A stretch of DNA of 49,036 bases, from positions 1 to 49,036 of the forward strand of contig MQRK01221720.1 in assembly GCA_001938485.1 (NCBI GenBank), read 5' to 3'. Position numbers and translations under genes: made by a program. Below, piece by piece: positions 10,102-46,989 of the stretch. This DNA is from Girardia tigrina. Taxonomy: Eukaryota. The first letter of the stretch is position 1. Each line of letters opens with the position of its first letter. The notes beneath the pieces are model-generated. The model saw nothing but the letters and a program-made list of their open reading frames with translations, was not told the DNA's origin and did no database searches.

Positions 10102-10223
10102 TGTAGAGAAATAGCAATCGGATTTAATTACAATTGTTTAATCGAACTAATTAATTGCGGTGAATTTGAGCGGGTAGAATTTTGATTTAAAAATAAAACT
10201 TGGCCATCAGCTTCGACTTATCA
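10102..10223 (+). repeat. 5' LTR
   Basis: TG...CA termini; matches 13888-14009. Confidence 0.9.
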
Positions 10224-13200
10224 AGCTATCGCGGCCATGAACCGGATTAAATTTATGGATGCTGACCGAACGTATGATGGCTGCGGCGATTTCGCGATTT
10301 GGTAACGCAAGTTTGATCTGACATCGACAAAAGTCCGGCGCTACCGATGCTCTTGACCCGGTGCTCATTGGATCTTTTTTCGGGGTTGACGAGCGAGTAC
10401 CAGCGGAACTATGATGCAGTAAAGGCCGCACTGTCAGAAGCACTCTGGTCCGATCCACATGAGGCGTTCGAGCATTTTTATCGCGATCGATTCAACCGGC
10501 CGAATCGATCGAGGAGTATATGTCGTCCCTGCGGCGTCTCGCGACCATCATCTGCATGGGGCAGGAGCCGCAGGAAAATTTTTGCACCAGGCATTTCTGG
10601 CTGGTTTGCAGACAGAAGTGTCGAAACATCTTTTACTCGGAAACAAACCTCTACGAGACCTGATCCCAATATTGCGGTCACTTCTCCGCATCAACACGAG
10701 AATGAAGAAGGCGGTCGAACCACCAAGTGGTGGAGTGATGGCATCAGCTTCGAACGTCAAGTACGGCGCCAATCAGAGACAGTGTTTTAGATGCAACAGG
10801 CGCGGTCATCTGCAAAAGGACTGCAGGGTGTTACTAGAAGTGAAGTAGGGTCCATCACCATTTTCAAAATTCAGAGCGTGCTTCATCGGCAGCGCACTGG
10901 ATCATTTTTGTGTGGCTTGTCCACAACGGAATCGAAAGTCGGGAAAAGATCAACAGGCCCTCTCTTCTGCGCAGGGCAGGTACCTGTGAATGGCGAAGCG
11001 CCATTACCCGTAGTCGTCGTCCGAGTAGGAGGAGAATTGGTGAAAGGACTCGTCGACACGGGGTGTTCCGTAACCATGATGGAACAGCGGTTGGTGCGAC
11101 CGGATCAAATTTCAGGCGTATCCGAAAAACTGCAAACGTTACTCGGTCAAGCAGTAGTGACACACGGGCATGGGTGGAAATTGAAGTGTTCGGCAGCTTT
11201 TAAAGTGCTGAGTTTTGTTGGCTAAAAGTTTGAAGTCGATAGGAGTGGATACAATCGCCTCAATGGGAGGGGTGAATGTGGGTGCCACAGGAAAAGGAAT
11301 CAGATTCGGCGCTGGCACAGTGAATGGACCGTAACAAGCGCAGTGTAAGTCGGGAGGCAGACATAGAGCATCGACCGAGGCCGCTGTTGCAGCGCCAGTG
11401 AAAGACTCGTTGGATCAACCGGGAATTCAGACAAGTGCATTGAAAGGCTCTTCACCAACTCGTATCGTCGATCAGAATTTCACGGCAGTGTTCGATGGAT
11501 AATCTTTGTCCGTTACGTGGCAATGGAAAGATGGGCGAGCGAAAGGATAGATGGTGGAATGTGAAAGACACCGGCAGTCGATACTGCCCCTCATAGAATA
11601 TTTCAAGAAGCAAAAGCGAAGGTTCGACCAGTCCTCGACTTCCGGGAGCTCAACGAGTCAATCTCAATTCATACGGCTGAGAGCCTTGTGTGCGCTGAAA
11701 AGTTGAAGAAATGACGCCAAATTGGATGAAACCTGGTCATTGTGGATTTGCGGCGTGTTTACGACAAATCAAGGTCAATCAATCTTTGTCGGCTTACCAG
11801 GTAGTACAACAACGGAATAGATCTTACTATCTAACCAGGCTCAGGTTCTGGTTCAGTGTAGCCTCAAAAATAATGCAGAAAATTCTATCACACGTATTGG
11901 GGTCGGATCCGGTGGTGCAGGTGAACACAGACACATACTACGATGACATCGCAGTCAATGTCGCCGAAATGCCGGTCAATCGAGTTCTAAAAGTGTTGCT
12001 GTGCTTCGGATTAGAGGCTAAAGATCCAGTTCTCATAGACAGCGGTCGAGTGTTGGGTCTCTCGGTTAAGGTAGACGAAGGCGGGAAATTACGGTGGTAC
12101 CGTGGCGGAGAAGTTCGACCACTGCCAGAGCAAGTCCCTCGCCGCAATTTATTCGCGTGGACCGGTCAATTGGTGAGACATTACCCGGTCTGTAGTTAGT
12201 TACGGCCGGCGTGCAGCACCCTCCAAAGGATGACCAGCGATTGTGGATGGGACACGGTCGTGGAACCTCAAATTGTGGAAATAGCTCGGCAGTTGACACA
12301 CCGGGTCCAAACGTAAGATCCGGCCAAGAGCGAATGGGAGGTACAGCAAATCGAGAGGGGGCGTATGGGGTGCCACGCAAGCTTAATCGCGGTCGGTATA
12401 TGCATTGAAATAGGTGATGTAGTCGTTGAGAATGCGTCAAAAAGACGACACTAACCACATCAATTTAACTGAGTTGTACGCTGCAAACTGCGCACTCAAA
12501 GAGGGAGTCAAATGGGGAATTCGGGAATTGGAATTATTAACCGACTCAGCAACAGTCACTAAATGGCTCTCATCGGCACTTTCGGGACGCGAACCGATTA
12601 GATATCAGGCACTCAGCGAGATTCTAATCAGGCGGCGGGTGCGCCTATTTAAACAAGTCGTCGTGGAAGAGACATTGAAAGTCACCATAATACTGGTCTG
12701 ATTTGAAGAAAACAAAGCGGATGCGCTGAATCGGGTTCCAGCGAGCTGGTGGACGTTCGCGAGAAACCCCGCGGTGGCAGCAGCAGTAACTGTCGGAGAT
12801 CAACGGGAATCAGAGGATGGTCTTAAGCAACTTCACGAGATGCATCATTTCGGTGTGAAAAGATTGATGTTCTTAGCTAGAAAAATATGGGGTCCGGGCA
12901 AGGTGTCAGAAGACCAAATCAGAGCAGTGATTCAGGAGTGCGAGCAATGTGCATCAATCGACCCATCGCCAATTCAGTGGATGAAAGGTGATATCCGGGT
13001 AAGGAAATCATGGACCCGATTTACTGAGGATGTAACACACGTTGTGGCGGTAAAATGTCTGACCATGGTGGACTGCGGCCCCAGGAAATTTATGATATGG
13101 CACCAAATTGCGACGAGAGTGAAGCGGATATCTGTTCCGCAATGAACAGCATCCGGAATAAATTCGGTCCACCAGAGGAAGTAATTATCGATAACTATGC

Positions 13201-13887
13201 ACTTTTAGGGGGTCGGGTGTGTCGAGTCTGCTAGAACGAGAGGGTACTGAAGCTCACTTCAGATGCGTGAACCGTTCGAGCGGAAATGGAATTTTGGAAC
13301 GCGGCCACAGGACTATTAAACAAATGGTGGCTCGGAGTAACAGACCGGTCGGTGAGATGGTTGCATGGTATAATGCAACACCAAAACCAAGTGGCATCAT
13401 TCCAGCCTCAATCATCTTTGCACACAGACGGAGGCTATTATTGTCTAAGGCATTCAACCTCACTAACATCAGTCGGAGTCCAGAAATAAAAACTAACGGA
13501 TTTCGAATTGGAGATGAATTATTGTGAAACCGTATTCGTGCATGCCACAGTGGAAACGTGCAACCATTACCGGGTTGCACCTGCCGCATCAAGTGGAAGT
13601 CGACAGACCCTCCCACGTAAGTCACGTGCGGTTTGGCCCCACCCGCGGCGAGCAGTGATGATGTCGGACGAACCGAGATTAGGGATACGGGCGATCCGCG
13701 CGCGACTAGTGAAAATAGCGATCGGGACGGGCCACAAGCCATCGAATGCGAGTTAGAAGAGCGAAGAGAGACTCCGGTGGGGCGAGATTCGAAGAATTTA
13801 TCTGTACGGGAATTCAAGCCAGTGTTGGTGATCGGGTCGCCCCCTACTCAAGTGGTGTCTGCTTGTGTACCTTGAGGGCAGGGGGCG

Positions 13888-14009
13888 CGTGAAAAAATAG
13901 CAATCGGATTTAATTACGATTGTTTAATCGAACTGATTACTTGCGGGGAATTTGAGCGGGTAGAATTTTTATTGAAAAATAAAACTTTGCTATCAGCTTC
14001 GACTTATCA
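13888..14009 (+). repeat. 3' LTR
   Basis: Follows the PPT and ends TCA before the TSD CAGTT; first base is mutated T>C. Confidence 0.9.
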
Positions 14010-15420: not shown

Positions 15421-15428
15421 TTACGTAG

Positions 15429-18343
15429 TGTTTAGTTTAAATTTAAGTTTCACAAAAATAATTTATTATTTTTTTAATTTGAAAATTTAAAAGTTATGAA
15501 ATAAGTTTAAATAAATTTTAAAATTAATAATTAACGGATTAATATGTGAAGAAATAATTTTTTTAATAAAAGGGTTTATTGTAAATTTAAATTAATTAGT
15601 TTTTATGATAAAGTTTCGTAAAAATGTTTGAACTAATTTAAAGTTTAAATTTCGTAAATTTTCAAAATTTAATCGAAAAATTTAATGAATTAATTTTGGG
15701 CGAAATAATTGAATTATTAAGAAATTTGTTTAAATATGTGAATTGTTGATATTAATAAATTTTGTAGTGTTAAATTATGACTTCGGAATTTGATAATACT
15801 GAAAGTGGCATAAACGCTACTTACATGGTGAACAACGCTGCTTTGGACAACTTCACAAACCAATTACTACCTGAAAAGTTCAAGAAAGGTGACAATGTGT
15901 AGACGTTCATAGAAGAATGTGAAACATTCTTTGAATTCGCGGGAGTGGCAAAAGCGAAACAAGACGTCATTGTCTTTTGTCTGTTGGACAGAGACATAAA
16001 GGAAAAATATAAGACCGTTGACAAGTCGATAAGTGGTTATAAAAATCGACTTTGAAAAACATTTGGTAGGACATCTTCAATATTTGAGGATTGGTCGGTA
16101 GATTGCCGGTATAGCATGAAGGATGATATACCTGAAGTTTTTTTCGAAAAAATAGAAAAGATGACAGAAAGAATTATGCAACATAACATGTAAAAAGAAA
16201 GCATAATGGAAAAAATATTAATGAACTGTTGTGATGACATAGATATCATGAAAGAAGTTCGGATGAATAATCTAAAATGAGTAGAACAAATAAAAGAAAA
16301 GATCAAAATGATACACGAGATTAAGAGTATAGAGGATCAGATAAACGTAGTGAGAGAGAACGGAACGGAGAACAGACCCAGGAGCTACAAGGATGCTGTG
16401 ACTCAAAATAATAATACATTTGAACAAAAGCATACAAGAGTCGGGGGCACAGAAAAGAACAGATATACTAATGGTCAAAACTGGGAGAGAAACCAATACT
16501 CGAGCGTAACAAATAGACAACGTGAGACTAGGAAATGCTTCGGATGGGGAATGGAGGGACATATTAGAAAAAACTGTACAGGGAGACAAATCAAATGTAA
16601 TGGTTGTGGACAGCAGGGACATGTAAGAAGAAACTGTCCGAATATCGAATGTAAACGGTGCCATAATAGAGGACATCGGGAGGACGAATGTTACACACAC
16701 TTAAACGGCAGAAGAAACCAACAAAGATCAACGAATAACAATTATCAAGGAGGGGGTTACAATCAACGACAATATAGAGATAGAGAAGACAGGAGAAGAG
16801 GAGACAATAGAGGATTAGTAGCGAACATTGAAGAAGAATATGAAGAATCGGTAATGGAGGAAGATCACCCAAAATACAGAGCCTCGACAGAAGTGGAGCC
16901 AGTCGGGGCAATAAACTAATAAATATAAAGGACTCCCAAAATATCGGTATTTATAGTAAAAGTAGTATAACAGATATTATAGACGTAATGAGTGACAAAT
17001 CAGAAAATATTTAAGCAGTAGAATGGATCGTAAATGATAAAGTTCGGAAGTTTTTAAAAAAAAGATGTATACGGAGATAATTGTGAAAAATGTTTAGTTG
17101 AACCAGTAGATGACAGACATACTAGCACAGAAACTAGGATTTTAACCATAGAAGAATGGAAAACTGAAAATATCGTATACAACAAAATGCAAGGTCGACC
17201 AAGTGTAAAAGTAAAGATACAACATATCAAGGAGGACTGTTTATCAGATACTGGGGCTAGAGTGAACGTCATGAGCAAGACGATTTTTGACAAACTAAAG
17301 GATGTGTAATTGGAAGCAGCAGATATTAAATTACACTGCGCTAATAACAGTCCACTAGAATGTATTGGTAAGATATCAGTGAATGTAAATATCAAAGACA
17401 AACAGAGAAATATAACGTTTATAATTGTAACTGACATTAAACCAGACATAATAGGAGGGATAAATCTTCTTAAAATCATTAAATTAAATCTTCTCCAAAT
17501 CATTAGAAAAGCATTACGAGATTTTAGACAGAGTATTGGATAGAATTGAAAAGGCAGATCTCAGAATTAATCCAGAAAAATGTCATATTTTAAAGACAGA
17601 AGTCAAATTCCTGGGTCATGTAATCAACGAAAAAGGGATTCAAACAGATCTGTCCAAATTGGAAGCTATTAAATCCTTTGAAAAACCGAAATGTATAAAG
17701 AATTTAAGAAGTTTCCTAGGGATCTGTAACTATTATAGAAGATTCATCAAAGATTTATGCAACGAACGCAAAGACATTGTGTGGATTGGACAAGAATAAA
17801 TTATTATGGACAGAGGCGTGTGATATAGCATTTGCTGAGATGAAGGAAGCCTTGACTATTCCCCCAATTCTTGGATTCCCAGATGGGGAGAAGGAATTTA
17901 TTCCACATGCGGACGCTAGTTTCGACACCATCGGAGTGGTTTTGTCACAGAAATGGTCACGAGAGAGTCATTGCATATGGGTCACACTCAATGAGTAATC
18001 ATGAAAAAGGTTAATGCATACCAAGAAAGGAGTTATTGGCAATCTATTACTTTTGTCAACATTTTAACCATTATTTGTACGGAAAAAGATTTATTCTGCG
18101 GACAGATCACAAGGCAATTACATTCATGCTGAAGACAAAGAAACCGATTACAGCGCAATTTCAGACGTGGATAAACTATGTATCAAGTCTGGATATACAA
18201 CTAGAATACCGAAAATGAGTGAACCATTCTAACGCAGATATGTTATCACGGAACAAGTGTGATACATGCACACAATGTTTAATAGCACACGAAGAGGCAA
18301 AGACGCAGGAGATCAAGACGCGAAGGATAAACGTAGTAGGCAT

Positions 18344-18382
<39 letters not shown>

Positions 18383-19789
18383 AGAAGGAGTCATGGACAA
18401 AATAAAGATGAACATAAAGACAGGTAAAAACAGAAACCTTGTGATTATAGATGGTATAATAAAGACAAACAAATGAAAAATTTGGATACTGAAATCAAAC
18501 AGAGAAGAAATGATTATGCAGATACACACGTTGCTTTCTCACGCTGGTGCGGAAAAAGTGAGAAAATATATTGCAGAAAAGTATGAAATGACCAATTAAA
18601 ATGAAATAATAAATGAGGTCATGGGACGATGTGAAGCATGTCAAAAAAGCAAAACAATAACGACGTCCACAAAAGAAAAACGAATAACATTGCTCGCAAA
18701 CGAACCATTTGAGAAATTATATATCGATATTTGTGGACCACTAAAAGAGACATGGAGAAAGAAAAATTACATTGTCACAATCATCGATCAGTTCAGTAGA
18801 TATATTTCATTAACATCGGTTAGTAAACAAGACGCAACCACTATAAAGAATACAATTATGACAAAATAGATTTTACGGTTTGGTGCTCCGAAAGAGATTT
18901 CATACAGATTGTGGTAAAACATTCGAATCGAAGGTAATAAAAGACATGGCTGAAAGCATGAGCATTAAAATGTGTTACTCAAGCCCTTACTATCATAACA
19001 CGAATGGAATAGTAGAAAGACAATTTCGAACGATTAGAGAATATTTAAACGCATCGTTAAATACAAAGAAAGGATCGGACTGGGAGGAACTACTACCAGA
19101 AATAGAATTCACATTAAATGCAACTTTTCAGAAAACAATAGGGAATAACCCAGCGGAAATTATATTCGGTAAAAAAATATACAGAGAAGGATGACATAGT
19201 CAAGATATAAAGTTACAGCAAGAAAAAGAAGGCACAACAACCAAAAGAAATTTTGAAATCGGAGATGAGGTACTAGTCAAGGTGGAAACGAGGATAAAGA
19301 GTGATAGAGAAAACACATGACAGAAGGTATAAATTAATAAATGAAGATGGAAGAAATTTAGATCGAAACGTGGAAAAATTAAGGAAATTCTTAAAGGGGT
19401 TAGTTTAAATTTAAGTTTCGCCAAAATATTTTATTATTTTTTTAATTTCAAAATTTAAAAGTTATGAAATAAGTTTAAATAAATTTTAAAATTAATAATT
19501 AACGAATTAATATTTGAAGAAATAATTTTTTTAATAAAAATGTTTATTTTAAATTTAAATTAATTAGTTTTTATGATAAAGTTTCGTTAAAATGTTTGTA
19601 TTTAAAGTTTAAATTTCGTAAATTTTCAAAATTTCATCGAAAAATTTAATGAATTAATTTTGGGAGAAACAATTGAATTATTAAGAAATTTGTTTAAATA
19701 TGTGAATTGTTGATATTAATAAATTTTGTAGTGTTAATTTATGACTTCGGAATTTGATGATACTGAAAGTGGTATAAATGCTACTTACA
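15429..19789 (+). mobile_element. Ty3/Gypsy LTR retrotransposon, degenerate, with an internal RT deletion
   Basis: AT-rich LTRs of about 395 bp (approx. 15429-15825 and 19400-19789), both ending CTACTTACA, with PBS-like TGGTG at 15826. Gag has three CCHC-type knuckles (ORF 16308-16919). Also protease DTGARVNV, RT C-terminus (KFLGH, FLGICNYYRRFI), RNase H (ADAS, TDHKA) and integrase (DICGP, TDCG..F, NGIVERQFRTI). No TSD found. Confidence 0.9.
18347..18380. repeat. (AT)n microsatellite inside the Gypsy pol
   Basis: AT run that produces the YIYIYI translation. Confidence 0.95.
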
Positions 19790-21310: not shown

Positions 21311-21685
21311 GAGATACTATTTTATCAAATATTTACTGTAAAGGAATCCAAAGTTTTGTCAATTTTTTGACAATTTCAAAAGATGTAACTCAAAATTGTT
21401 ATTTGTACGTAAGATACACTAAAATATTCATATATGCACGTGAGATTACATTCGGTTTAATAAAAAAGGTTTACAAATGTTTGGGATTACACAAAGTATC
21501 ATCTTTTATTAAACTGTACAGAAAATATAGACACTTTCATTTTGTTCATATTTTGAAACAATTTAGATGATAAAAGTTGTCGAAAGACCTTTTTTACTAA
21601 TGTTTGTTGTAATGTCGAAAGGAAATTTTATTTATTTATGAACATAACATATCAAATAAAAAGATAAAAATGTATATATTTGCAG

Positions 21686-22256
21686 ATAGGTAAACATTGG
21701 CTTGCCGGCCTTATAAAACATAACAGGGCTCTCTGTGCTTTCTTCTCTCCGACAGTCAATTGTTATCGCCGATTTCGAGTAGCTTTTTGGGCACCCAATA
21801 AATCATCGTGGAATTATGAGGATAGGTTAGTTGCTTACAATGTCAAAATATCAAAAGAAAATCCGACAAGAAACTTCATTGAAAACCGACTTCCTGGTTC
21901 GGCTTGTAATATTTATCTTGCAGTAGCAGCGATGATTGTCGCCGGTATGGACGGTCTAAAGAACAAAATTAAATTGGGTGAACCTGGAAATCTTCCTCAC
22001 AGTGACTTATTGCCAACATCGCTATCTGAAGCTTTAGATGCTCTGAAAGAAGACGAAGTGATGGTGAAAGAACTGGGAGAGAAATTCGTAGATTGGTTTA
22101 TTAAAGTAAGAATTCTATTTATTGCTGCAATAAAAAGTTATAAAATATTTCAAGATCAAACGAGAGACCGATGTTGAAGTCTTGAAGGATGTTAATATTG
22201 ACATTCAAACGGATGAAGGTTTGATGAAGGAGCGCATGAAATATTTCGATTTGTAG
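21686..22256 (+). CDS. Glutamine synthetase type I-family protein, exons 6-7
   Basis: Exon 21686-22105 carries PTVNCYRRF, WAP, EDR, IENRLPGSACNIYLA and LPTSLSEALDAL. A 49-nt intron precedes exon 22155-22256, which ends ERMKYFDL*. AATAAA at 22403. Total CDS is 1332 nt (443 aa). Confidence 0.92.
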
Positions 22257-22847: not shown

Positions 22848-22872
22848 CAAAAAGCTATTCCGAAGAATAGCT
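22848..22872 (-). terminator. Hairpin AGCTATTC-TTCG-GAATAGCT plus T tract, terminator-like
   Basis: Perfect 8-bp stem with a cUUCGg loop followed by TTTT on the minus strand, downstream of the leftward gene block. An identical 23-bp core occurs at 34684-34706. Function is inferred. Confidence 0.45.
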
Positions 22873-22982
22873 AATGGTTATTTTTTTTATAGTATCTATG
22901 AGAAATTAAAAATTATAATTATTTATAAGACTAACAAATTAATAAAAAAAACATTAGATTATTTATAGCCATTTAAATTTTT

Positions 22983-25123: not shown

Positions 25124-25591
25124 TTATAATAAACTCTCCGGCCATAAACAATCTAACATTTCCTCAATTATATCATCAAACTTTTGCGTCTTATTACCGC
25201 ATACACACTGATTCATTTTAAATAAAAAAAATAAACTCAATTGTCCACATAGTCTCGTTCAGAAGGGTTGTACTTGTCCAGAATTATATATACATTTTGG
25301 AAAATCCGGTAAAGGCTCTATTCCATACGGATCGAAGTAGAAAGATTTTGGCTCTTTCTCAAATTCTTTTTCCCCATTAAAATATCCCACCCAATGACTC
25401 CCCTGCTCATCCGAATCCTGGTAATTTATTATTGATAATTTTTTATTATTTAATTTTTCTTCAACCTCATCCGCCATCAAGACTTGTATTTCAATTTTTA
25501 ATTTTCTTGCCCAATTTTCAAGTTGAATATTTGTTGAAGTGTCAACTCCGAACATTTGCATTATATCTTGTAAGTTGTAAAATTCTATCAT
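25124..25591 (-). pseudogene. Adenain/Ulp1-like cysteine protease (Polinton PRO) with one in-frame stop
   Basis: IINY...GSHWV (His), YFDPYG (Asp), Q.Q...CGQ (Cys). TGA at 25259-25261 lies just before the catalytic Cys and the frame continues to TAA at 25124. Confidence 0.88.
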
Positions 25592-25596
25592 TTTTT

Positions 25597-26363
25597 TTAC
25601 TTTTCTATTATTTGTCTCAGTCTCAAACATAAATTAATTCGCTCATTTCGGAAATCAATTAATCGTCCTTTGTTGTCAATAATTCTCACAGTAAAATCAT
25701 TTATCTGATANNNNNNNNNNNNNNNNNNNNNNNNNNNNNNNNNNNNNNNNNNNNNNNNNNNNNNNNNNNNNNNNNNNNNNNNNNNNNNNNNNNNNNNNNN
25801 ATATTTATATCGGTTATCTGAAAAGTATATTTCGATTCAAAATTTTCCATTGGTCCTGTTAAGAGAATATTTTCCACATCAAAGAAATAGTTGAATTTGG
25901 ATTTTTCGAATCCATGCATTGAGTGNNNNNNCGATTGATTAGTGAATTCAATGGAATAATTATCCAGGATCTTGATTCGGGATTTTGATGTTTTCTCATC
26001 TGTCTCCACTTTCACTGCTCCATTCGTTAATTTAAAAATTTCCTCATTGATATCTTTATACTCCCAAGCACCCTCTTTCAAATCAAGTTTTGTATAAAAA
26101 TAAGCATCATTGTTTTCTCCCCGAATAAGCGAATTCCTAATTCCCTTGATTTCCTTTGGTAAATCTTTTCCTTTATGTAGAATAATAAAAGAATTGTTTT
26201 CCGAAGTGACATTTGCAACAGTATTATAAGTTGAAAACCAGACCAATCCGATTTCGTATTTATACCGCGGATTCAAATCCAACTGAATAGGCAGCTTAAC
26301 CTTGATTTCCGATTTCGCAGCAGAAATTGTAAACGTTGTAGAAAATCCACTAGTCTCGCCCAT
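25597..26363 (-). CDS. Minor capsid protein (penton)
   Basis: YEIGLVWFSTYNTVANV...NNSF and GAWEYKDIN. After the N gap the C-terminus reads IIDNKGRLIDFRNERINLCLRLR. Confidence 0.85.
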
Positions 26364-27543: not shown

Positions 27544-27886
27544 TTTTAATATTTAAATCAGCTAGCCGTTTAACAATTCGTTCCTCTTCTCGTTCCTGTT
27601 TTGCTAATAATTTTGCCAGGATTTCTTGCTCTAGTAATTTCAATTTTAATCTTTTTTCCTCAGCTCGAGCCCTGATCTCGTCTTCCGATTTCACAGGTTT
27701 CTGTTGTCGATCGTGAAATTGATAACCCTCGTTTCTGCGAACGTATAATCTTTTTTTAATTTTTTCATTATATTTCTGTCGAGCGGCTTTCTCTCTTCGT
27801 AATTGTTCTGGGAGAGTCTGCATAAAATTATACAAATCATTGACATTAACAGGTTTATTCTTTTTTATTTTTTTATTAGTATTCAT
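27536..27886 (-). CDS. Polinton basic, helical hypothetical protein
   Basis: 116-aa K/R/E-rich ORF overlapping both neighbours by a few bases. Confidence 0.6.
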   Translation of the reverse strand: MNTNKKIKKNKPVNVNDLYNFMQTLPEQLRREKAARQKYNEKIKKRLYVRRNEGYQFHDRQQKPVKSEDEIRARAEEKRLKLKLLEQEILAKLLAKQEREEERIVKRLADLNIKNE

Positions 27887-28536
27887 TTTCTATTATTCCC
27901 GGAATTCGGATCCCAAGGTTCCAAGTACAAACCTTTCCCGGTGAATCGACATTTCAATTTCCCACCCAATTTCCGATTCCGAGCTAATAATTTATTTTTT
28001 GATTTTTTATCTTTATTTGTTTGATTAATCTGTTCACGAAAAAAATTCTGAATTCCTTTACCAGTATAATCGTCCCAATACAACCCTTCTCCTTCGTCTT
28101 CATCATCTTCATAATCTTCATTTTCATAATCTTCATCATCGTAATCATCTTCATCTTCTATTCCTTTTCCTTTTTTTCCTTTTTTCCGCAATCCCGATCC
28201 TGATTTTCCTAAAGAACTTCGAATAGCTAATTCAGCAATAGGTAATATAGCTTTCATTATAGGACTTAATTCTCCGCCTTTTGATTTTTTCTTTAATCCC
28301 GATCCTGTTGGCGTGGCTGGCGTGGCTGCTTTGGCTGCAATTTCTTGTTGCAATTTCTGGTTTTGTAATCTAATACCCTCGGTTTCAGCCTGATTTTTCT
28401 GTGCTTCTTTTGCTTTTTGNNNNGTTGTTGCAACTCCGGCTGCTGCGCCGCCTAAACCGCCAACAACAGTCATAATTAATGGAATTAATGCCGCCAGTGG
28501 TAATAATCCGCCAGAATGGTATTTATCCCCAATCAT
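27883..28536 (-). CDS. pX/pVII-like core protein precursor
   Basis: GGLLPLAALIPLI...GG motif resembling adenovirus pX, repeated GxG sites (TGSG, SGSG, KGKG, EGEG, TGKG) and terminal GLYLEPW. The 5' part (to about 28668) appears disrupted. Confidence 0.7.
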   Translation of the reverse strand: MIGDKYHSGGLLPLAALIPLIMTVVGGLGGAAAGVATXXQKAKEAQKNQAETEGIRLQNQKLQQEIAAKAATPATPTGSGLKKKSKGGELSPIMKAILPIAELAIRSSLGKSGSGLRKKGKKGKGIEDEDDYDDEDYENEDYEDDEDEGEGLYWDDYTGKGIQNFFREQINQTNKDKKSKNKLLARNRKLGGKLKCRFTGKGLYLEPWDPNSGNNRK

Positions 28537-28689: not shown

Positions 28690-30037
28690 TCACTTTCCCT
28701 TGAATGGTTCGATTATCGTGATTTGCGATCCGCGAATAGACATTTCCACCTTGGCTTCCTGGAGAATTACGCAATACATTTTTGGAATAAACGTTTCAGA
28801 TTTTCGAATTAGCAGTGTAACGGAGACATTGTTAAGATCCAAAGTTTTATCAATATCCGAGGTATCGAAACAGACAATTGGATAAAAAGATTTCCAATCT
28901 TTCAGCGATAGCATTGGGGCCTTATCTTGGAATCCGCGGCAGCATTGCACGTAACTATTATATAATTCATAAAAATTCCGATTTTCTGTATTATTCACCA
29001 TTGGCTGGATTGGGTAATAGGTATTATTTAATTTTAATTGAATCGAGAATTCTTTAGGATCCATTTTGAACAGGGAATTATTTTTATTATATCCCGAATT
29101 ATCAGTTTTCATTCCGACGAAAATATATCTTGGTAAATAATTCAGATATGCCGCATTCCACGAGAAAACCTTTTAGGCCGTCAAATCGTATTCCACTGAG
29201 ATTCGCTGGAGAAAATCCACATAAATCGGTTTATCTTTCAGATTCAGCCGATCCACCAATCGGGCATAATAATCAATATTCAACTCCAGTTGATTCATGT
29301 GCAGTTCCAAGGAATTTATTGTAATAGTTCCTTTGGTCCCATTTTTCGCGAAAAAAATATTTGCATTATCCATTTTTCGAACCAATGTGAATTCCAGAAG
29401 AATATTATAAATAACTCGGTTATAATTTTGCAAAAATCCAAAGAGATGTTTCAGCGAGAAAGAGCCTCTGAATTTCATTAAATTGTATTGATTTTTCCGG
29501 ATTTCAAATCCAATATTTTGATATCGCAAACCGACTGGAACTGCAGCTACTGCTGGCGGACCAGCGGCAGCATCTATTTTTTCTCCATAAACCATTTCAT
29601 TGTGATCAGGGATAAAATCGGTTATTTCTCCACAGGGTAAATAGTTTCTATCTTTAGAGACATATAATAACATATCTGATACAACTCCAGGATTATTTAT
29701 CGATTCAACGACATAATTTCCTAATTTTAATGACATACATGTAAATAATTTCGGGAAGAAATTAGTTTCTAAAACGGTATCACATTCTGTGATTGTGATA
29801 TCATAAACCAGTTTTGCATTACAAATATCTATCGGATCAGTGGTTTGTGATAATTGATAAACTATAGTTCCATTGCTATTCAAATATGCCATTGATCCGG
29901 ATGTTGGCGCCAGTTTTATTACATCGGATTTTTTTCAAAACATGAGAAAATTCTTTATTGTTATCGAAATCTAAAATTCCCAAGAAAATCATTCCTGAGG
30001 TTAATTGATTTATTGGTTTTTCGAAGCTTGTTTCCAT
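28690..30037 (-). pseudogene. Major capsid protein (double jelly-roll, PY) with one frameshift and one in-frame stop
   Basis: LNSNG.I, NFFPKLF...L.LG....ESINNPG, SLKHLFGF...Y.RVI, PRYIFV, LNNTYYP and YPIVCFD. TAA at 29173-29175 is in frame with ORF 28690-29112. A frameshift in an A run near 29935 separates the ATG at 30037. Confidence 0.9.
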
Positions 30038-30048
30038 TTTTAAAATAA

Positions 30049-31384
30049 TTAATTATTTTGTACTTTGCCAATTCGCGTAATCTGTAAATCCGCTTCATAG
30101 AATCGTCCAAATAATTCTTTATCTTTTTCAGGATTTTTCAACTTATAAGTTACAGGATATTCATGATCCAAAACTTGAGAAATTTCATAAATTTCTCGAG
30201 TCCATTTCGGTTCATATCCTTTTTTAAAAGTTTGTAATTTCCGTTCCTGGTTTTTATTACGAGTACCTTCAGGTTTATCTCCGCTAAATATTTTTGTTTC
30301 GAATACCCGAACTCGATCTCCGACTTTGAATTTTGGTTTAACTTTTTTCTTGGGTAATTTTTGAGGTTTTGGAAGCGGAATAACATTATTAAACATTACA
30401 TCGTGCGGTGATACGCGGATAGAGCTATGAATTCTATTATTATAATCAGATAATATTTTTTCCATTTCTAGCTCAGTGATAACTTTCTCACCTTTCTCAG
30501 TAAATAGTTTATAGATTTCAGATTTTAATGTTCTATTAAATCTTTCAATAAAAACAGGTTTTTCCTTTACGAAATACATTTTAATATTATTCGCTTTCAG
30601 GAATTTTTTCTCAAATTCTTTGTTTGTGAATTCAGCTCCCTGATCAACCCATAAATATTTTGGAATTGGTAATTCAGTATTTGTTAATTCCGTTAAGATT
30701 GAAATGAAAGCTTGGATTATCGATTCAGATTTCTTATTGGGAAGAAAACGGAAAAAAACCATATCGTGAATAAATATCTATAACTGTTAAAATGTAATAT
30801 TTCCAAATTTTACGAGTTTGTCCTGATTTTGTTATTGTTGTTGCAACGACACCATTTTCAGTATCCTCTTTCGCGTCAACAGTTATCAAGTCTGCAGACC
30901 AAATCCGATTCAATGATTTAACATTTATTCGAAGAAAGTCTTTATTTTTTTTATGTGCTTTATGTAATTCTTTAGCTAATTGTTTATTATTTTTATTATC
31001 TATTTCCCCACCAAATGCGATTTTACCTTTCATAATTGTTTTTATGAGAAATCTTTCGAATTTTTGACGTAAAGTTAGATCTTGTAATTCATTAATATAG
31101 TGAATAAGATTTACATCCGCCAAGTGCCGATCTCGTAAATCTTCAGATCTGTAAGCGATATCATGTTTGTAGCATGCCTGATCCAATCCATCTACTGGTT
31201 TATTATCTTCACCGATTGGCTGATCTTGATCATCTAATCGAATATCCAATCTTGTTAGAGGACCGCAATAATTTTTACCCGGCAAATGCAGTTCACCGTA
31301 TTTCGTTTTCATAAATCCAGGAATATATTTCGCAAAATTTCCCATAGATTGTTGAACGTCACCTCCTTTTTTAATAATCATCAT
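30049..31384 (-). CDS. Phospholipase A2-retroviral-type integrase fusion, split by a 1-nt frameshift near 30755
   Basis: PLA2: ELHLPGKNYCGP...LDQACYKHDIAY...D. Integrase start in the same ORF: LAKELHK, IWSADL, YILTVIDIYSRY. It continues as LWVDQGAEF, ERFNRTLK, YNNRIHSSI and KGYEPKWTREIY. Confidence 0.9.
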
Positions 31385-31567: not shown

Positions 31568-32476
31568 TTACTCGCTTTCATCATTTTCAATATCTGAGTG
31601 CATGTTCGGATTTTCGATTGTTATTTCTTCTTCAGTAAATATATTTTTATAAATTTTTTTCTCAGTACGATCGAAATAAATATAATTATATTTTTTCCGC
31701 TGCCATTGATGAATGATTTCCCGCTGATATTCGTTAATATTTTCGCTATTGGGTAAGAGATCAGAAAAGATATAAGATTTATCTCTTTTTCCTAATTCGA
31801 AAAAAATGAATCCAGTGGAATTATTCCGGATAGAATGCTTATCCAATCCGTAGAAAGTTTGGGAAATATATATCGTATTACAATTATTATGTCTTCCCCT
31901 GGTAAAATATGATTTCATTATTTTCTGATCTGACAGATTCACCACGTCATCGAAAATAATGAGATTCTTTGCATCTTTTGGTAGCGAGTCGCAAGCGACG
32001 ATTTGATTGGGATCACTTGAAAATAGGACTGATATCGCTTTTTCAGGATCTCTAATCAAGTATTTTGATTTATCAATATTATTTTTATTATTAATAAATC
32101 TTTTATACGCATAAACGAGATATTCTGGAGGAGGAATATAATCTTTATCAGAATCATTACCTAATTCCTCTTTTATCATTTCCAGTAACATTTTCTGTTT
32201 ATCGAAAATATCGCGTATTCCGGTTTTTGTTAAAGATGATCCATCTTCAAAACGAAAACCACTTGCAATAACTTTCAATTCTGGTTGATCAATAGTTGTG
32301 GAATAAAATATTAAATTATTAAAATCGAGAAATCCGTCTTCTAGTAACATTTTAGTTAATAAAACATTTTTACCACAACCAGATTCACCAACTATTAACA
32401 GTCTGAAATTCTTTGGAGATAATTTGTTTTTAAACTTTGACTCGTACATTGTTAAAATATTCAGTTTTTCCTTCAT
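31568..32476 (-). CDS. A32/FtsK-like genome-packaging ATPase
   Basis: Walker A GESGCGKN, Walker B LIIFDD and YFTRGRHNN...YISQ. Probable ATG at 32476. Confidence 0.92.
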   Translation of the reverse strand: MKEKLNILTMYESKFKNKLSPKNFRLLIVGESGCGKNVLLTKMLLEDGFLDFNNLIFYSTTIDQPELKVIASGFRFEDGSSLTKTGIRDIFDKQKMLLEMIKEELGNDSDKDYIPPPEYLVYAYKRFINNKNNIDKSKYLIRDPEKAISVLFSSDPNQIVACDSLPKDAKNLIIFDDVVNLSDQKIMKSYFTRGRHNNCNTIYISQTFYGLDKHSIRNNSTGFIFFELGKRDKSYIFSDLLPNSENINEYQREIIHQWQRKKYNYIYFDRTEKKIYKNIFTEEEITIENPNMHSDIENDESE

Positions 32477-32672
32477 TTTTAAGTTGGAAAAGTATTTTCC
32501 AAGCTTAAACATACAGAGGCTTCGCCGACCCTTTCGGTATTTTTTTTGTGTCAAAATTTCGAAAATGCAAAAAAAATATTTTTATAAAAAATGTCTGATA
32601 AAAAAAAAATTTCCAACGATTCCGACCAAGAAAAAAAATAAAAAAAATATTAGAAAAATTATTAGAAAAAAA

Positions 32673-34683: not shown

Positions 34684-34716
34684 CAAAAAGCTATTCCGAA
34701 GAATAGTTATTTTTTT
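34684..34716. promoter_or_regulatory. Second copy of the hairpin motif, in the divergent intergenic region upstream of pPolB
   Basis: CAAAAAGCTATTCCGAAGAATAG is identical to 22848-22870 and is followed by a T tract. Confidence 0.45.
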
Positions 34717-34755: not shown

Positions 34756-36030
34756 ATGACTGATAAAAATAAAAACAAATCTCATGCCAAGAAAAAAATT
34801 AGAAGAGCTGTTGTAAGTTTGGATCCAAGTGTGGATCTACCAATAGATTTTGATATTAATAGAGAAGTAGAATCTCCAATTACAGTAGAACCGCCAGAAG
34901 CAGAAACGAACCCTAATTGGGATAATCCATTATATTGCCGATTATGTGATAAATTATTTCACAATAAAGCTGCTCTAATATCGCATAAAAAAGTAACGCA
35001 CATATCCGAAAAGAAACTAATAATATTAGTATAAAAATTGAAAATGTGGAAATAGTTCATAATTTAAAAGAAAATATTATTGATCTCGAATATTATTTCG
35101 AAGAAGATGGGAAAAAGGTATTATTCATTGAAGATATTACTCGATTAATTGATGTCTACGATAATCTGGATGAACGGTTGAAATTTCCAGTTCTTATTGA
35201 TGTATCTTTGAAAGTTGAATTTATTAAAGGGGAAGAAATAATTGAAAAGGAAATCAGTTTACCGGCAAGAAGACTTCTGACGCAAAGACGAATGAACCGC
35301 CACGTGAGGCATCTGCCGGGAAAATTAAATGCAAAAATACGGGAATGCGAATTACGGGGATCTGGATTTAGCATTCACAAAATTGTTAAAATAAATATTA
35401 GAATATCTCCCTATAAAAATTCCACTTCAGGTATTTTTCTTGATCCACCGGATCGGTTGAAAAATTCCCATAGTATTATAAACATTCGAAATAAGGATGA
35501 CAAATGTTTTCTATGGTGCTTTGTCGCGCATACGATGCGAGATCGATTAAAGGAAATAATAAATAAATCACGAGTTTCCAATTATACCAGAGAATACGAA
35601 TCCAAGAAAAAGTATTTCGATGATATTTTCAAAGACGATATCAATTTCCCAACGAAATTGGAAGATATAAAACTTTTCAATAAAAGAGTCCCAGAAGAAA
35701 ATAAAGTCAATGTTTTTGAAGTGGATTATCAGGGAAATGTATTACCGGTTTTAATCTCTCATCTCGATGTTAAAGGATTCAATATTTTATTTTATTCCCA
35801 GAAAATCAATGACGAGATAAAAACTCATTTTGTTTATTGTAGAAATATCAGAAGATTTCTAGCCTGCAAATATTTTCTTTGTCTTAATTGTATGTGTCAA
35901 TTTCAATTGGAATCGACTTACCAAAAACATGTGGATATTTGTCAAAATAATAAAGCGATTAAAGCTTCTTTCCCGAAAGACGAATATTATCAATTTAATA
36001 AATTCCATTATAAAGTTAGAGTCCCTTTGA
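34756..36030 (+). pseudogene. Protein-primed DNA polymerase B, N-terminal portion only
   Basis: C2H2 finger CRLC...HKKVTH, frameshift near 35010, then GSGF, IINIRNKDDKCFLWC, HFVY and CLNC...H...C. It stops at KVRVP, just before the expected exonuclease I motif. Confidence 0.88.
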
Positions 36031-36551
36031 GTTAGAGAACCATTGAATACGATAATTATAAAGCAAATAATAAAGCTATTCGATTTCTAATTAGTAAATC
36101 TTTATTGATTTATTTTACTTTGACAATTTTACTAATTACGGAGTTTCCGTAATTAGTTTAAACAAAAACTAACAAAACTTAATTTATAAGAATAAATATA
36201 TATTTATATATATATACATTTTCTCATATAAATATATATATCATTTAATTTTTTTTTATTTTTTTTAAATAAATTTAATGATAAAAAATAAAATTTTTCT
36301 TTAATGAAATTTAATTTAAAAAAAACGAAAACCGAACAGTCACTTTTGCCACACAAATTCTTTTTGATATTTTTTTTCATTTTTTTGTGCCATTTTGGCA
36401 ATTTTTTTTCGATTGAATATATATTTAATAAACAAATAAGCATTCGAAATATGCAAAATAATCTCAACATTCATAAAATTGAAGACCGAATTCGACATTT
36501 GAGTGTACAAACAAATAACATTGCCATTTCATTTTATGCAACTATACAGTT

Positions 36552-40275: not shown

Positions 40276-41449
40276 AGGAAAGTTTATTGCCGCCGCAGTT
40301 TATTGTTTAATCATGTTATATGTTATATATTCATAGTCTTATTGAATAATAATAAATGGGTTCCGTTTAATTTTTTAGTTAACCTTATTATTTTTTCTCA
40401 TTTTGAAATTTACTATTCTCATTTTGAAGTTGAAAAGGTATTAAATTCCAAAGTTTTAGAACTACAAACATTATTAATTTACACCAGTTTCATTGGTAGA
40501 AACAAAACTAGCTGTTTGATTGAAAATTGAAGTGTGAAAAAGTCACAAATGATCGGTATATGCGTCAGAAATGATGAAAATGCAAGAATGTAAATTGTTA
40601 TAGTTTTATAAAAGTGAATCAAATTGACTATAAAGCTTTACAAAAACCAAACTTAAGATCGATTTTTTAAAAGAAATTAACTATTTTGTAAAAAACTTTG
40701 ACTGACAATCGACAGTTCTAAAATACTAATTAATTCTCGTTCGAATTAAAAAATAATTGCTTCCAATTTGTTTTTGATAATAAAAATATATGAAAGCAAC
40801 ATAAAAAACCCAAAATTATGTATACGATTTTTATCGAAAACTTTTTTTTCAATGAAAAAAGATAATAGCAATTTAATTATATAAAAGACCCTTTGACACC
40901 AAAAACTGAAATTTAATAATCGATAAGAAAGTTAATCGGATAATTTTTTTCAATAAAATACTTCATTCTAAATTACTTGAATTACATTAAATAAATTTGT
41001 TTTAATATCCATAATAGTTAAAGTATTTTTCAAGATATTTATTTGATAAGATTTTCCTTTATTTGATTACTAAAGTTTCATAAGATTTCAATTGAACAGA
41101 TCTAATTTACTAAATAATAAATATCGTTTTATTTATATTTAATTGAAAAATGAGTAATATTTTGAAGTAAGTTTTATTATTTAATAATAACACAGAAAAT
41201 TTTGTTTTATCTACCAAAACATAACTAATCCATTGAAAAATAGGTTTTATTTTGTTCGTATTGACGCTTTTTCGAGATAATTATTTATTGACTAGATGAA
41301 AATTGATCTAAAATGACAGTTATAAATGATACACTCGTTATAGATTAGAAATCCCGCGCAGACATTTACTAATGACATCCGTGTGATTTAATGATTTTCA
41401 TGTCGCTTTGAATTTTATACTTATCAATTCTAATGTTTTGTGAATTAAT

Positions 41450-42175
41450 ATTTGATTATTTTTAATTATGAATTAATTTTATGAATAATTATTAATTAAT
41501 TTGTGATTATTAATTCATTTATTTTCTATAATTTATTAATTATTTTGTGATTATGTATGATTTAATTTGTGAATACATATTAATTAATTTGTGATTATTT
41601 ATGAATTAATTTGTGATTATTTATTAATTAATTTGTGATTATTTATGAATTAATTTGTGATAATTTATGAATTAATTTGTGATTATTTATTAATTAATTT
41701 GTGATTATTTATGAATTAATTTGTGAATATTTATGAATTAATTTGTGATTATTTATGAATTAATTTGTGATTATTTATGATTTGATTTGTGAATACATAT
41801 TAATTAATTTTAATTATTAATTAATTAATTTTGGATTATTAATTAATGTTATTATTAGTAAATTTTTAATTATTTATGAATTAATTTATGAATAATTATG
41901 AATTAATTTGTGATTATTTATGAATTAATTTGTGAATATTTATGAATTAATTTATGAATAATTACGAATTAATTTGTGATTATTTATGATTTGATTTGTG
42001 AATACATATTAATTAATTGTAATTATTACTTAATTAATGGATTATTTATTAATCTGTAATTATTAGTAAATTTGTGATAATTTATTTGTGCTTATTTATC
42101 AATTAATTTGTGATTACTTAATAATGAATTTATTAATATATAACAATTTTTGATTATTTATTAATTAATTTATTT
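41450..42175. repeat. AT-rich minisatellite, unit about 22 bp (GAATTAATTTGTGATTATTTAT)
   Basis: Many tandem, variably degenerate copies, cleanest at 41580-41780. Confidence 0.9.
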
Positions 42176-42532
42176 AATGTGTCAAATTTCATATATAAAT
42201 GCTTACAAATTATGCATGTATCCGTATATGTATTGAACTTGTGTGTTTGGATATTTTCTATCCCTTCTATATAATCTGAAATATTTAATTGCTTTGATCT
42301 ATTAGAATGACCCTCAGATCCATTGTCATTGGTTAGATTATATTTAATCTACTTATTTACGTATATTTATTTTCAAGAATCTAACCAAATGCCTTTGTGA
42401 CATTTATAATCGGGAATCAGTGTAAATATTTATAATAAACTAAACAGAATTCTTCTCGATTATTTCGCAAAATTAATGGGCAAATAATCCGATTGAAATT
42501 CATCTAAAACCGTTTAATATTTTTAATAAATT

Positions 42533-43410
42533 TTTGAAAACTTATCTGTTTTAGTCAAATGGAAAGGAGCATATATCATTTATTGAAATATTAAAAAGCG
42601 AAACAGAAGCTATTGGGTACAAAGAACATTAAAAATATGGACACATTATATGTTTCACTGGAGTTAATATCATTTTCAACCCCAATAAAATTATTTTGGA
42701 ACATTTCAATTAATCGGGGATAATTGGTCGGTAACAATTAATAAAATTAAATTTGTTTGGTTGGGAATTTTTGTTGGATAATTACATTAAGTAATAAATT
42801 TAAGTAATTTTGACGATAAACAATTTCTGAAGAAAAATAACATCTTATATTATCTAAGGATTGCATTTACGGATAAATTTAAGATTGTTTATTGAAAAAC
42901 TTTGGTCCTTTTTAACAGTTCATTTTACATTTTTTAGATACTTACTTTTATAAATAATCAATTGCTTTACATTTAATGAATCGGGTCATTCAGAAAAATC
43001 TTCTATGATATTTAGTTAATAGAAATAAAGTCAGCAAAGGTTTAAATGCGAATATTTACATTCAATCATTTGTCAGAAAAATATTTTCCACATTCAATTT
43101 GAATGATTGATACCATTGTATTTGTTATCATGATTTTATAAACAAATATTAACAATTAGAATCTAAATGCAGGCTAAATACCAGATCCCAAATCTTAAAA
43201 TTTTTAAATAGATTTTTTAAAATATATTATTACATTAATTTCACGATAATTTTTAAAATGTAGTGCTTCGACAAATTAACTCCAGTGAAACATACAATGT
43301 GTCCATATTTTTAATGTTCTTTGTACCCAATAGCTTCTGTTTCGCTTTTTAATATTTCAATAAATTATATATGCTCCTTTCCATTTGACTAAAACAGATA
43401 AGTTTTCAAA
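42533..43410. mobile_element. 136-bp inverted repeat pair (MITE/foldback-like)
   Basis: 42533-42668 is the near-perfect reverse complement of 43275-43410, with a 606-bp non-coding spacer. No clear TSD. Confidence 0.75.
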
Positions 43411-43844
43411 GCGTTTTAAAAATATCTTAGTTAAGCCTGAGCATTTTCGCCGAACTTAGCTAATCTTTACAACGTTAGTAGTTATTCATAAAAAAGAAAT
43501 TATCTCTACAGTCTTTAAATTTAATTTTTTTCTTAAAATTAGAAATTCGTTCTAATAATTTGCAAGTCTCTAATTTTATGAATAATATTTGTAAAAAAAC
43601 CCAACCTTTTCAATAATTTATTTAATATTTTAATTTCATGTAATATTAACCAATCATTTGAATCACTTTGTTATCGATACAAAACTATCAATTATTTATT
43701 GTTCTTTTTTTTAAATTTATTGTTTGATAAATGGATTATCTATTTGAAAATTTTATAAATCTTGATGTATTATAATGCTTTAATTACTAATGAAAAAAAA
43801 CCTTAAAAAAACTATTTTTAAGGAGAAGTAATTTATCAAATATC

Positions 43845-45760: not shown

Positions 45761-45897
45761 GTTGTTTTTAACGAAAGATTATTTGTATTTTTTATTGGAG
45801 CGTAATAATAGAGATCCTACAACATACATTTTTGAAGTGGCCTGTTTTATTTACTATTAATAAATTATGGCTTCTATATTGGTAATATGAATAATTT

Positions 45898-46863
45898 GGT
45901 AACCGGATGAAACAGCAAAGGAAAAAACAACACGACAGAACAGCATAGTGAAAAAAAACAGCACAATTAATATAACTAGCATTTATTCACGAATTTTGTA
46001 TTGCATTTTGACATGTTACTCACTGCAAATTAGCCATCCTTCGCAAATACTTCAACTTGTCTTCCTCAGCTTGGTATCCTTGAACTGCAGCAGCAACCTG
46101 TTGATGAAGTAGCTGATACTTCTTCTTCATGACCCCTGGTTGACCATCCTGTGCTTTTATCAATATCGGCGTCCTGTTGGCCATGTCAATCTGAAGACCA
46201 GAAAAGAGAGACCAGACACTTGGATGACTGCAGTGGAAGATGACATTAAGCGAATTGTGGAAGCCTTCACAGCAGTTTGTTGTCTTTGGTGATTGTTCAT
46301 CAGCAGCTTCATAGTAATTCCAGATACTGATGGGAAATTGTTGCTCTCGTTCTGCTGCACCCTCAACGTAAGTAGAAAAGAAGTAGGTGAGGATATCATT
46401 GTAGCTTTCCTCATCTGGAAATGTGGCTGCAAGTGTATCAAACACAGCTCTCACTTCTTGCATTGGCACAAATGCCAAGACAGACAACGATTTTAGCATC
46501 AACTTGACTTCAATATCAGACTCTAACTCGATTTTCAAGCCAGCAGTGTTGATTTTTCTGATGAGGCTTTGACAAAGATGAAAGTAGCATCCTTTGACTT
46601 CAGTGTTTGGAAAGTCAATCAATGATGCAGAGATATGTCCTGGACATATGAAATTACGCAAAATTGTTGTTAATTCAGCCTGAAGATGGTGGAAAATCCA
46701 CCGAAATATATTGCGAAAATATATTTATTATCGATTTTTAAATGACCCTTTAATTGACAAGAAGAATGTTATATAATTTAGTAAAAAAAATAATTGTGCT
46801 GTTTTTTTCACTATGCTGTTTTTTCTTGTGTTGTTTTTTCCTTTACTATTTTTTCATGGAACC
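45898..46863 (-). mobile_element. Mutator-like (MULE) deletion derivative with a C-terminal transposase fragment (46020-46661)
   Basis: Imperfect TIRs of about 70 bp starting GG, and a perfect 9-bp TSD GAATAATTT (45889-45897, 46864-46872). Motifs GCYFHLCQ, LAFVP and TTNCCEGFHN. Confidence 0.92.
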
Positions 46864-46989
46864 GAATAATTTATTTATAAACATAGTTATTTTTTAAAAC
46901 TAAATTCTTTTATCTATAAATATAAATATTTTTTCACTTATTTTCTTCCTGTTTTTGAAATGTTTTTTTCGACATTCCAAGTCTATGGC

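Follow-up and report, generated by a model that had tools for sequence, protein, structure and literature searches.

In the Polinton lineage described here, a phospholipase A2 (PLA2) and an integrase are parts of one in-frame protein, and this PLA2-integrase fusion is widespread and apparently undescribed. The window, that is, the whole stretch of DNA that was analyzed (49,036 nucleotides of Girardia tigrina, contig MQRK01221720.1 of assembly GCA_001938485.1), carries one copy of the fusion in what its gene content identifies as a decayed Polinton (Table 1).

Table 1. Features of the Polinton copy in the window
Feature	Position	Strand	Basis
PLA2-integrase fusion ORF, N-terminal 216 aa	30734..31384	-	PF08398; full-length natural sister copies
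KGG motif, predicted protease site, before conserved leader helix	31361..31369	-	Copy conservation, model
Parvovirus-type PLA2 domain; YCGP loop 31259-31270, HDIAY 31151-31165	31016..31300	-	PF08398, E 8.9e-10
FGG boundary motif, predicted cleavage site	31007..31015	-	Conservation in copies and relatives
Variable flexible linker	30986..31006	-	Linker lengths, pN/pS, pLDDT
rve integrase; WSAD 30890-30901, second Asp 30643-30645, Glu 30544-30546; without C-terminal chromodomain	30049..30985	-	Pfam, alignment
A32-type packaging ATPase	31568..32512	-	PF04665, E 5.6e-09, over cut-off
DJR capsid protein gene, split by stop	28690..29892	-	PF21738 on both halves, just under cut-off
Separate pX-like core protein, 12 GG/GxG motifs	27883..28536	-	BLASTP to stand-alone PLA2 tails
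Probable penton (minor capsid) gene	25701..26363	-	Position and size; no Pfam match
Adenain-like cysteine protease, stopped before catalytic Cys in window copy	25259..25630	-	Motifs
Protein-primed DNA polymerase B, N-terminal part, truncated	34989..36035	+	Sister frame

In the window copy (L001), the fusion ORF holds only the N-terminal part of the protein, with KGG at residue 6, YCGP at 39, HDIAY at 74, FGG at 124, and WSAD at 162. Pfam PF08398 matched residues 31–118 with a score of 39.1 bits (cut-off 23.9). Past a frameshift in a homopolymer run near 30750–30760, the integrase continues in a different frame (30049–30777). This frameshift is particular to the window copy, and the sister copies are uninterrupted there. 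A single frame of more than 430 aa with both HDIAY and ERFN was found in 29 of 54 distinct sister copies, with lengths of 435–505 aa, and PF08398 and rve matched the same ORF in five single-frame sister copies, rve exceeding its cut-off in four of them. The first-pass annotation had read the PLA2 and the integrase N-terminus, including its first catalytic Asp, in one ORF and had held that the fusion does not depend on the downstream frameshift; both statements were confirmed, and the profile searches that it proposed bore them out. A programmed frameshift at the break in the window was ruled out, since the sister copies carry the open frame straight across, and chance read-through or an assembly artefact as the source of the fusion was rejected on the basis of the sister copies, the relatives, and the selection described below. 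A contig from an RNA library (X8) crosses the junction unspliced at 30792–31219; it may represent DNA carry-over and was not used as evidence.

To the extent that it can be read from gene content, the element belongs to the Polintons/Mavericks, having PolB, a D,D,E rve integrase, an ATPase, a capsid protein, and a cysteine protease; as judged from the same genes, it is a member with neither PLA2X nor a chromodomain-type integrase. A 1330-aa sister frame, 94% identical to the window PolB, matched PF03175 (E 4.4e-11, 42.8 bits versus a cut-off of 25.8). Pfam gave no match on the protease piece in the window (25259–25630), and in 18 of 19 sister loci a single frame held the His, Asp, Gln, and Cys motifs of the protease. 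By BLASTP, the ORF at 27883–28536 matched the tail of one stand-alone PLA2 with an E-value of 2e-04 and that of another with 0.004. It corresponds to the 'X' part that other Polintons join to the PLA2, and it is separate in the window element and in L061. Neither terminal inverted repeats nor a target-site duplication was found around the window copy, which is truncated. A 31-bp direct repeat (87%) at 22849–22879 and 34685–34715, inside or at the edge of the element, is a possible regulatory motif.

Outside the element, the window contains a decayed LTR retrotransposon (15427–19789), with long direct repeats about 3965 bp apart, a zinc knuckle, and RT- and integrase-like fragments, and a GC-rich retroelement-like stretch (10109–14009) with 115-bp direct repeats and matches to aspartyl protease and DUF7047. 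A frame at 21668–22177 presumably resembles the C-terminal part of glutamine synthetase. An AT-rich tandem array with a 22-bp unit (41423–42197), a 148-bp inverted-repeat element (42521–43422), and an inverted-repeat pair (45887–46874) were also observed; the pair flanks a frame at 46020–46724, which we take to be transposase-like.

The sister copies were collected by a search of the 1.43-Gb assembly, in which 150 of 1864 candidates were scored and gave 157 matches, mostly 90–97% identical. A second search, with the C-terminal half of the integrase as the query, gave 150 further rows on contigs partly shared with the first. The genome holds more than 100 copies of the element. The linker that connects FGG with the KQLAKELH helix had 13 different lengths of 12–111 nt (4–37 residues) and was in frame and stop-free in 47 of the 47 scorable copies; a stop followed by a separate start between the domains, which the first-pass annotation had named as the observation that would speak against it, was looked for and seen in none of them. 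Among the 20 copies chosen by the C-terminal half of the integrase alone, 12 linker lengths occurred, each a multiple of three, with odds of about 1 in 180,000 if the lengths are independent and frame-blind, the copies being related to one another. The seven unscored copies consisted of three in frame with variant motifs, two at contig edges, one with an N gap over the junction, and L040, in which no PLA2 precedes the integrase and stops are present upstream.

Pairwise pN/pS among the sister copies was 0.05, 0.09, 0.11, 0.17, and 0.65 for the leader, the PLA2, the integrase core, the C-terminus, and the linker, respectively, and the values were alike in the two sets in which the copies had been picked. 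The integrase catalytic residues D, D, and E were found in 53 of 53, 53 of 53, and 51 of 52 window-family copies, respectively, and the PLA2 residues His, Asp, and Tyr were nearly invariant among the sister copies as well. Purifying selection acts on the PLA2 and the integrase, including both catalytic sites, and the linker is free in sequence yet held in frame. A similar insert of 13–15 residues was observed in the linkers of L036, L054, and L058 and in the N-termini, before KGG, of L007, L012, L020, and L024, which suggests copying between the two Gly sites.

The PLA2 domain had been assigned to the parvovirus VP1u type in the first-pass annotation. The HDxxY motif with a downstream Asp and the PF08398 score fit a parvovirus-type PLA2, and the His, Tyr, and Asp were invariant across 36 diverse rows. 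The calcium loop was YCGPL in 50 of 50 window-family copies, with Leu in place of the last Gly of the parvoviral YxGxG; it was YAGPG in a second fused family of this genome and Y/F-x-GPG in most relatives. In the available part of PMC3626588, YxGxG and HDxxY are the stated PLA2 motifs, and the last Gly of YxGxG is named as calcium-binding. The YCGPL loop without this Gly counts against PLA2 activity. Natural parvoviral calcium loops with a bulky residue at this position exist. The assignment is upheld by PF08398, YCGP, and HDIAY and falls short at the last Gly of the loop. Ahead of the domain, a leader helix was predicted at residues 11–19 in an AlphaFold model of a natural copy; its hydrophobic moment reached only about the 90th percentile of the protein, and amphipathicity is therefore not claimed. 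In the viral contigs searched for PLA2, four matches were obtained, which were stand-alone and weak.

PF00385 (chromodomain) matched neither the window-family copies nor the fused relative P0002, and only 4–5 residues followed the integrase profile in these proteins, compared to about 42–50 in most unfused relatives. The chromodomain by which Starrett and Buck characterize the adintovirus integrase is absent from the window family. A PDB sequence search returned foamy-virus integrases only, as weak matches, and fold searches with the whole model as the query returned integrases only, the best viral match being the integrase of a MELD virus.

The fusion is not unique to this genome: fused relatives in protein searches and in the ESM Atlas reject that idea. 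The first protein search yielded four fused relatives. Among the best 150 of 657 protein matches at the 50%-identity level, 40 were fused, 33 of them with an integrase score of at least 25 bits, and both PF08398 and PF00665 were present in 45 among the best 120 of 823 nearest integrases, including P0256 from the coral Oculina patagonica. A search of the ESM Atlas returned clusters of 184, 111, and 72 members in which both families occur, and two of these three are automatically named for the combination; their cluster scores of 0.81–0.83 make them leads only. The first-pass annotation could not tell how widespread the fusion is and had tied its novelty to rarity, which these counts contradict, the architecture being common in sequence databases.

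A PF08398 search of the genome, from which 20 regions were sampled, revealed the second fused family (L146–L157, L160, and L162) in 13 of the 20. This family has a zinc-finger-like N-terminal segment ahead of KGG, and its linkers of 15–87 nt were in frame in 17 of 17 cases. In L147 and L155, the start of the PLA2-integrase protein is doubled within one frame, by tandem duplication or an assembly artefact. Further PLA2 genes in this genome (L143–L145, L158, and L161) have non-integrase tails and frames of up to 657 aa and may belong to other Polinton or parvovirus-like elements. A C2H2/U1-type zinc finger opens many fused relatives (P0002 at residues 1–31, L061, L064, and L148) and is absent from the window family; its zf-U1 score (E 8e-04) was under the cut-off.

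The integrase tree was computed by a quick method from 125 rows, after 26 of 151 rows, consisting of near-duplicates and five N-truncated ambiguous sequences, had been dropped; ten rows with PLA2 remnants or Pfam matches were relabelled as fused. A clade of 57 fused rows without a chromodomain, with an SH-aLRT of 96, contains both families of this genome, and the exact place of the window family in the tree is unsure because it forms a long branch. Fifteen more fused rows lie outside this clade, some with a chromodomain. Several independent origins of the PLA2 fusion, which would correspond to the seven changes on the 125-row tree (two of them forced by starred branches), are not claimed; an AU test on 40 of the 125 rows did not reject a single fused clade (p 0.41).

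A parallel fusion was found in P0224, P0226, P0234, and P0271, which form one clade and have an adenain-like domain ahead of the rve integrase with GKG or GG linkers. Peptidase_C5 matched these proteins with E-values of 0.0004–0.003 and 17.5–20.5 bits against a cut-off of 21.3, and the His, Asp, Gln, and Cys motifs are visible. The integrases of the protease fusions carry a chromodomain, their clusters have 4–215 members, and P0221 is a remnant. The viral contigs searched for a protease-integrase fusion yielded nothing. With this sister lineage, in which a protease is the carrier, there are two different virion proteins to which the integrase has been joined.

We propose that the PLA2-integrase protein is probably a virion polyprotein, in which the integrase is packaged with the PLA2 and is then cut at Gly-Gly motifs at maturation. 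The PLA2 part would retain the packaging role of the stand-alone virion protein and bring the integrase into the particle one-to-one, and the element's own cysteine protease would cut the Gly-Gly motifs on both sides of the PLA2. At entry, the PLA2, released together with its leader helix, would breach the membrane of the endosome, and the freed integrase, beginning a few residues before the ELHK helix like its unfused relatives, would accompany the genome and insert it with no need for prior viral gene expression. According to the available parts of two papers, mavirus virions contain an integrase and a cleaved hydrolase (PMC6048507), and Polinton lipases have been proposed to be packaged entry factors (PMC4642659). 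A similar polyprotein had been put forward in the first-pass annotation; the selected linker frame, the flanking Gly motifs, the intact sister protease, and the protease-integrase parallel speak for it, and packaging, cleavage, and PLA2 activity are the parts that we infer.

The Gly motifs noted in that annotation, FGG at the junction and KGG at the N-terminus, were both present. FGG was kept in 50 of 51 copies with 3–5 codon types, and the Gly residues of the leader KGG were kept in 50 of 51 and 46 of 51 copies, respectively. Of 72 fused proteins, 70 (all except P0200 and P0211) had GG or GxG at the end of the PLA2 domain, compared to 2 of 1522 windows across the integrase portions of these proteins; for the ten relabelled rows, the motif was sought across the whole pre-integrase stretch, which is a looser test. 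A second Gly motif lay upstream of the PLA2 in 36 of 43 scorable fused proteins. Within the window element, GG/GxG occurred twice in the fusion, besides the 12 in the pX-like ORF, and was absent from the MCP, the penton, the protease, and the C-terminal half of the integrase. In the AlphaFold model (pTM 0.48), the PLA2 and integrase domains were both predicted with confidence, and residues 127–130, directly behind FGG, formed a loop of low confidence (pLDDT <50). In 34 of 42 unfused relatives, the protein starts 6–12 residues ahead of the ELH helix; the GG of the window copy is 12 residues ahead of this helix, and the predicted cut there would give the integrase of a fused protein a start close to the unfused ones. 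The adenovirus protease consensus is (M/L/I)-x-G-G or (M/L/I)-x-G-x-G; with Ala as the P4 residue of the junction and Lys as that of the N-terminal site, neither motif follows the adenovirus M/L/I rule. The junction motif, which the first-pass annotation had proposed as an adenain site, fits the rule of the mavirus protease, for which cleavage at GG|X and GX|G is described (PMC6048507, available part), and it lies at the low-confidence loop, where cleavage is predicted.

The protein might instead be packaged and left uncut, with the PLA2 staying permanently in place as its N-terminal domain and packaging tag and with the Gly motif as no more than the structural end of the PLA2 fold, a reading that we regard as unlikely. 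Of 40 complete ORFs for a stand-alone PLA2, 32 had the same end motif; many are, by sequence, related termite-gut-type contigs and not independent. FGG is therefore not fusion-specific; the boundary motif is inherited, and its conservation by itself is no proof of cleavage. After the motif, 11 of these 32 proteins had a basic pX-like tail and 21 reached a stop 1–8 residues later, where a cut would have no clear purpose and the motif may be a structural helix cap. The missed P4 consensus, the nearly linkerless state of some fused proteins (11 residues between the PLA2 end and ELH), and the Foldseek result that full-length foamy-virus integrases with helical N-terminal domains overlay most of the model, loosely (rmsd 10–13), are likewise consistent with an uncut protein. 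Such a protein would nevertheless combine a membrane enzyme with a nuclear integrase, which act at different sites, and it does not account for a linker that accepts any sequence of 4–37 residues, for the second Gly motif that brackets the PLA2 on its upstream side, or for the same kind of linker in the protease-integrase fusions.

There is little chance that the fusion itself does little and that the integrase arises as a product of its own, by internal initiation or from a shorter transcript. A Met lies six residues ahead of FGG in 51 of 52 window-family copies, gene callers start some proteins at such internal Mets (P0173, P0177, and P0180), and the close stand-alone PLA2s L071, L072, and L074 stop one residue past the Gly motif, with an integrase-like ORF of weak score overlapping the PLA2 end in L074, possibly as a pre-fusion or split state. 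Against separate products, that interval lacks a Met in 23 of 62 fused proteins, and the linker stops or frame changes that such products would allow were seen in 0 of 47 copies. Parvovirus-type PLA2 requires calcium levels found outside the cytosol. The least probable reading, by a slight degree, is an intracellular role with no virion, in which the PLA2 helps the integrase-DNA complex across internal membranes or is a tolerated passenger; the family is known here from genes alone and its high copy number is compatible with intracellular spread, but a pN/pS of 0.09 with invariant catalytic residues is not what a passenger would show, capsid, ATPase, and protease genes are retained in the element, and the calcium need would be met outside the cytosol.

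Beyond the virion polyprotein proposed for this lineage, it is possible, although we would stop short of calling it probable, that a large branch of animal Polintons loads its integrase as a cleavable polyprotein tail on two carriers, an entry phospholipase and a maturation protease. If this is true, the branch would be a DNA-virus counterpart of retroviral Gag-Pol, and the selection on the fusions would be direct genetic evidence of infectious particles and of integration straight after entry. At stake are whether animal Polintons are real viruses and how the integrase reaches a new cell; a selected in-frame tie of an entry-only enzyme to the integrase argues for an integrase that travels in particles. 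The fusion also offers a small biochemical test of how specific the Polinton protease is, with one protease and one junction. As regards annotation, neither PLA2X nor a chromodomain-bearing integrase is general among Polintons, and many Polinton 'integrases' are PLA2 fusions of 380–480 aa, which are often either called wrongly from an internal Met or given the name 'transposase InsO family'.

In the available parts of the literature consulted, the PLA2 is given as PLA2X or as a separate gene and the integrase as chromodomain-bearing (PMC8502044, PMC3671162, PMC5803895, PMC6048507, PMC11161782, PMC4642659, and PMC11131425), and the same picture is drawn in 10.64898/2026.06.19.733378, 10.1101/2024.03.25.586562, PMC4405056, 10.64898/2026.10.13.758929, and PMC3626588. 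Full-text searches of the literature yielded no description of a PLA2-integrase fusion, and a prior mention is possible in Repbase, subscription papers, and bioRxiv supplements, which lay outside this scope. The available text of PMC8502044 describes no such fusion, and its sequence file S2 and slides could hold such proteins.

Among known systems, the PLA2X of adintoviruses (Alpha, Mayetiola-class; Starrett et al. 2021, PMC8502044), as far as the available text describes it, has the same PLA2 type, the same gene set (PolB, rve integrase, ATPase, capsid, and protease), and the same domain end, K-x-K-x-G-x-G. PLA2X, however, consists of a PLA2 with a C-terminal pX-like tail, next to a separate chromodomain integrase gene, whereas here the PLA2 is joined to the integrase, the pX-like ORF is separate, and the 57-row clade lacks the chromodomain. 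The mavirus virion (MV02 integrase, MV13 hydrolase, and MVP protease; Born et al. 2018, PMC6048507, available part) likewise contains an integrase and a predicted hydrolase, but these are encoded by separate genes without a fusion, the hydrolase is an alpha/beta hydrolase and not a PLA2, and mavirus is a protist virus. Ginger1, likened by the available description only (PMC4405056), has an integrase and a protease in one polypeptide and is comparable with the sister lineage, but it has no PLA2 and no capsid genes. The parvovirus VP1u PLA2 (PF08398) shares HDxxY, the downstream Asp, the YxGP loop, and the N-terminal tether to a virion protein, which is presumed here; it differs in that the partner here is an integrase and not a capsid protein and that the last Gly of the loop is Leu in the window family. 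In retroviral Gag-Pol, the integrase forms the tail of a precursor, enters the particle in this form, and is released by the viral protease. The integrase as a precursor tail, as proposed here, and the same integrase fold make this an analogy of working and not of membership, since the present system would be that of a DNA virus with a cysteine protease, without frameshifting or RT, and with an entry enzyme as the carrier.
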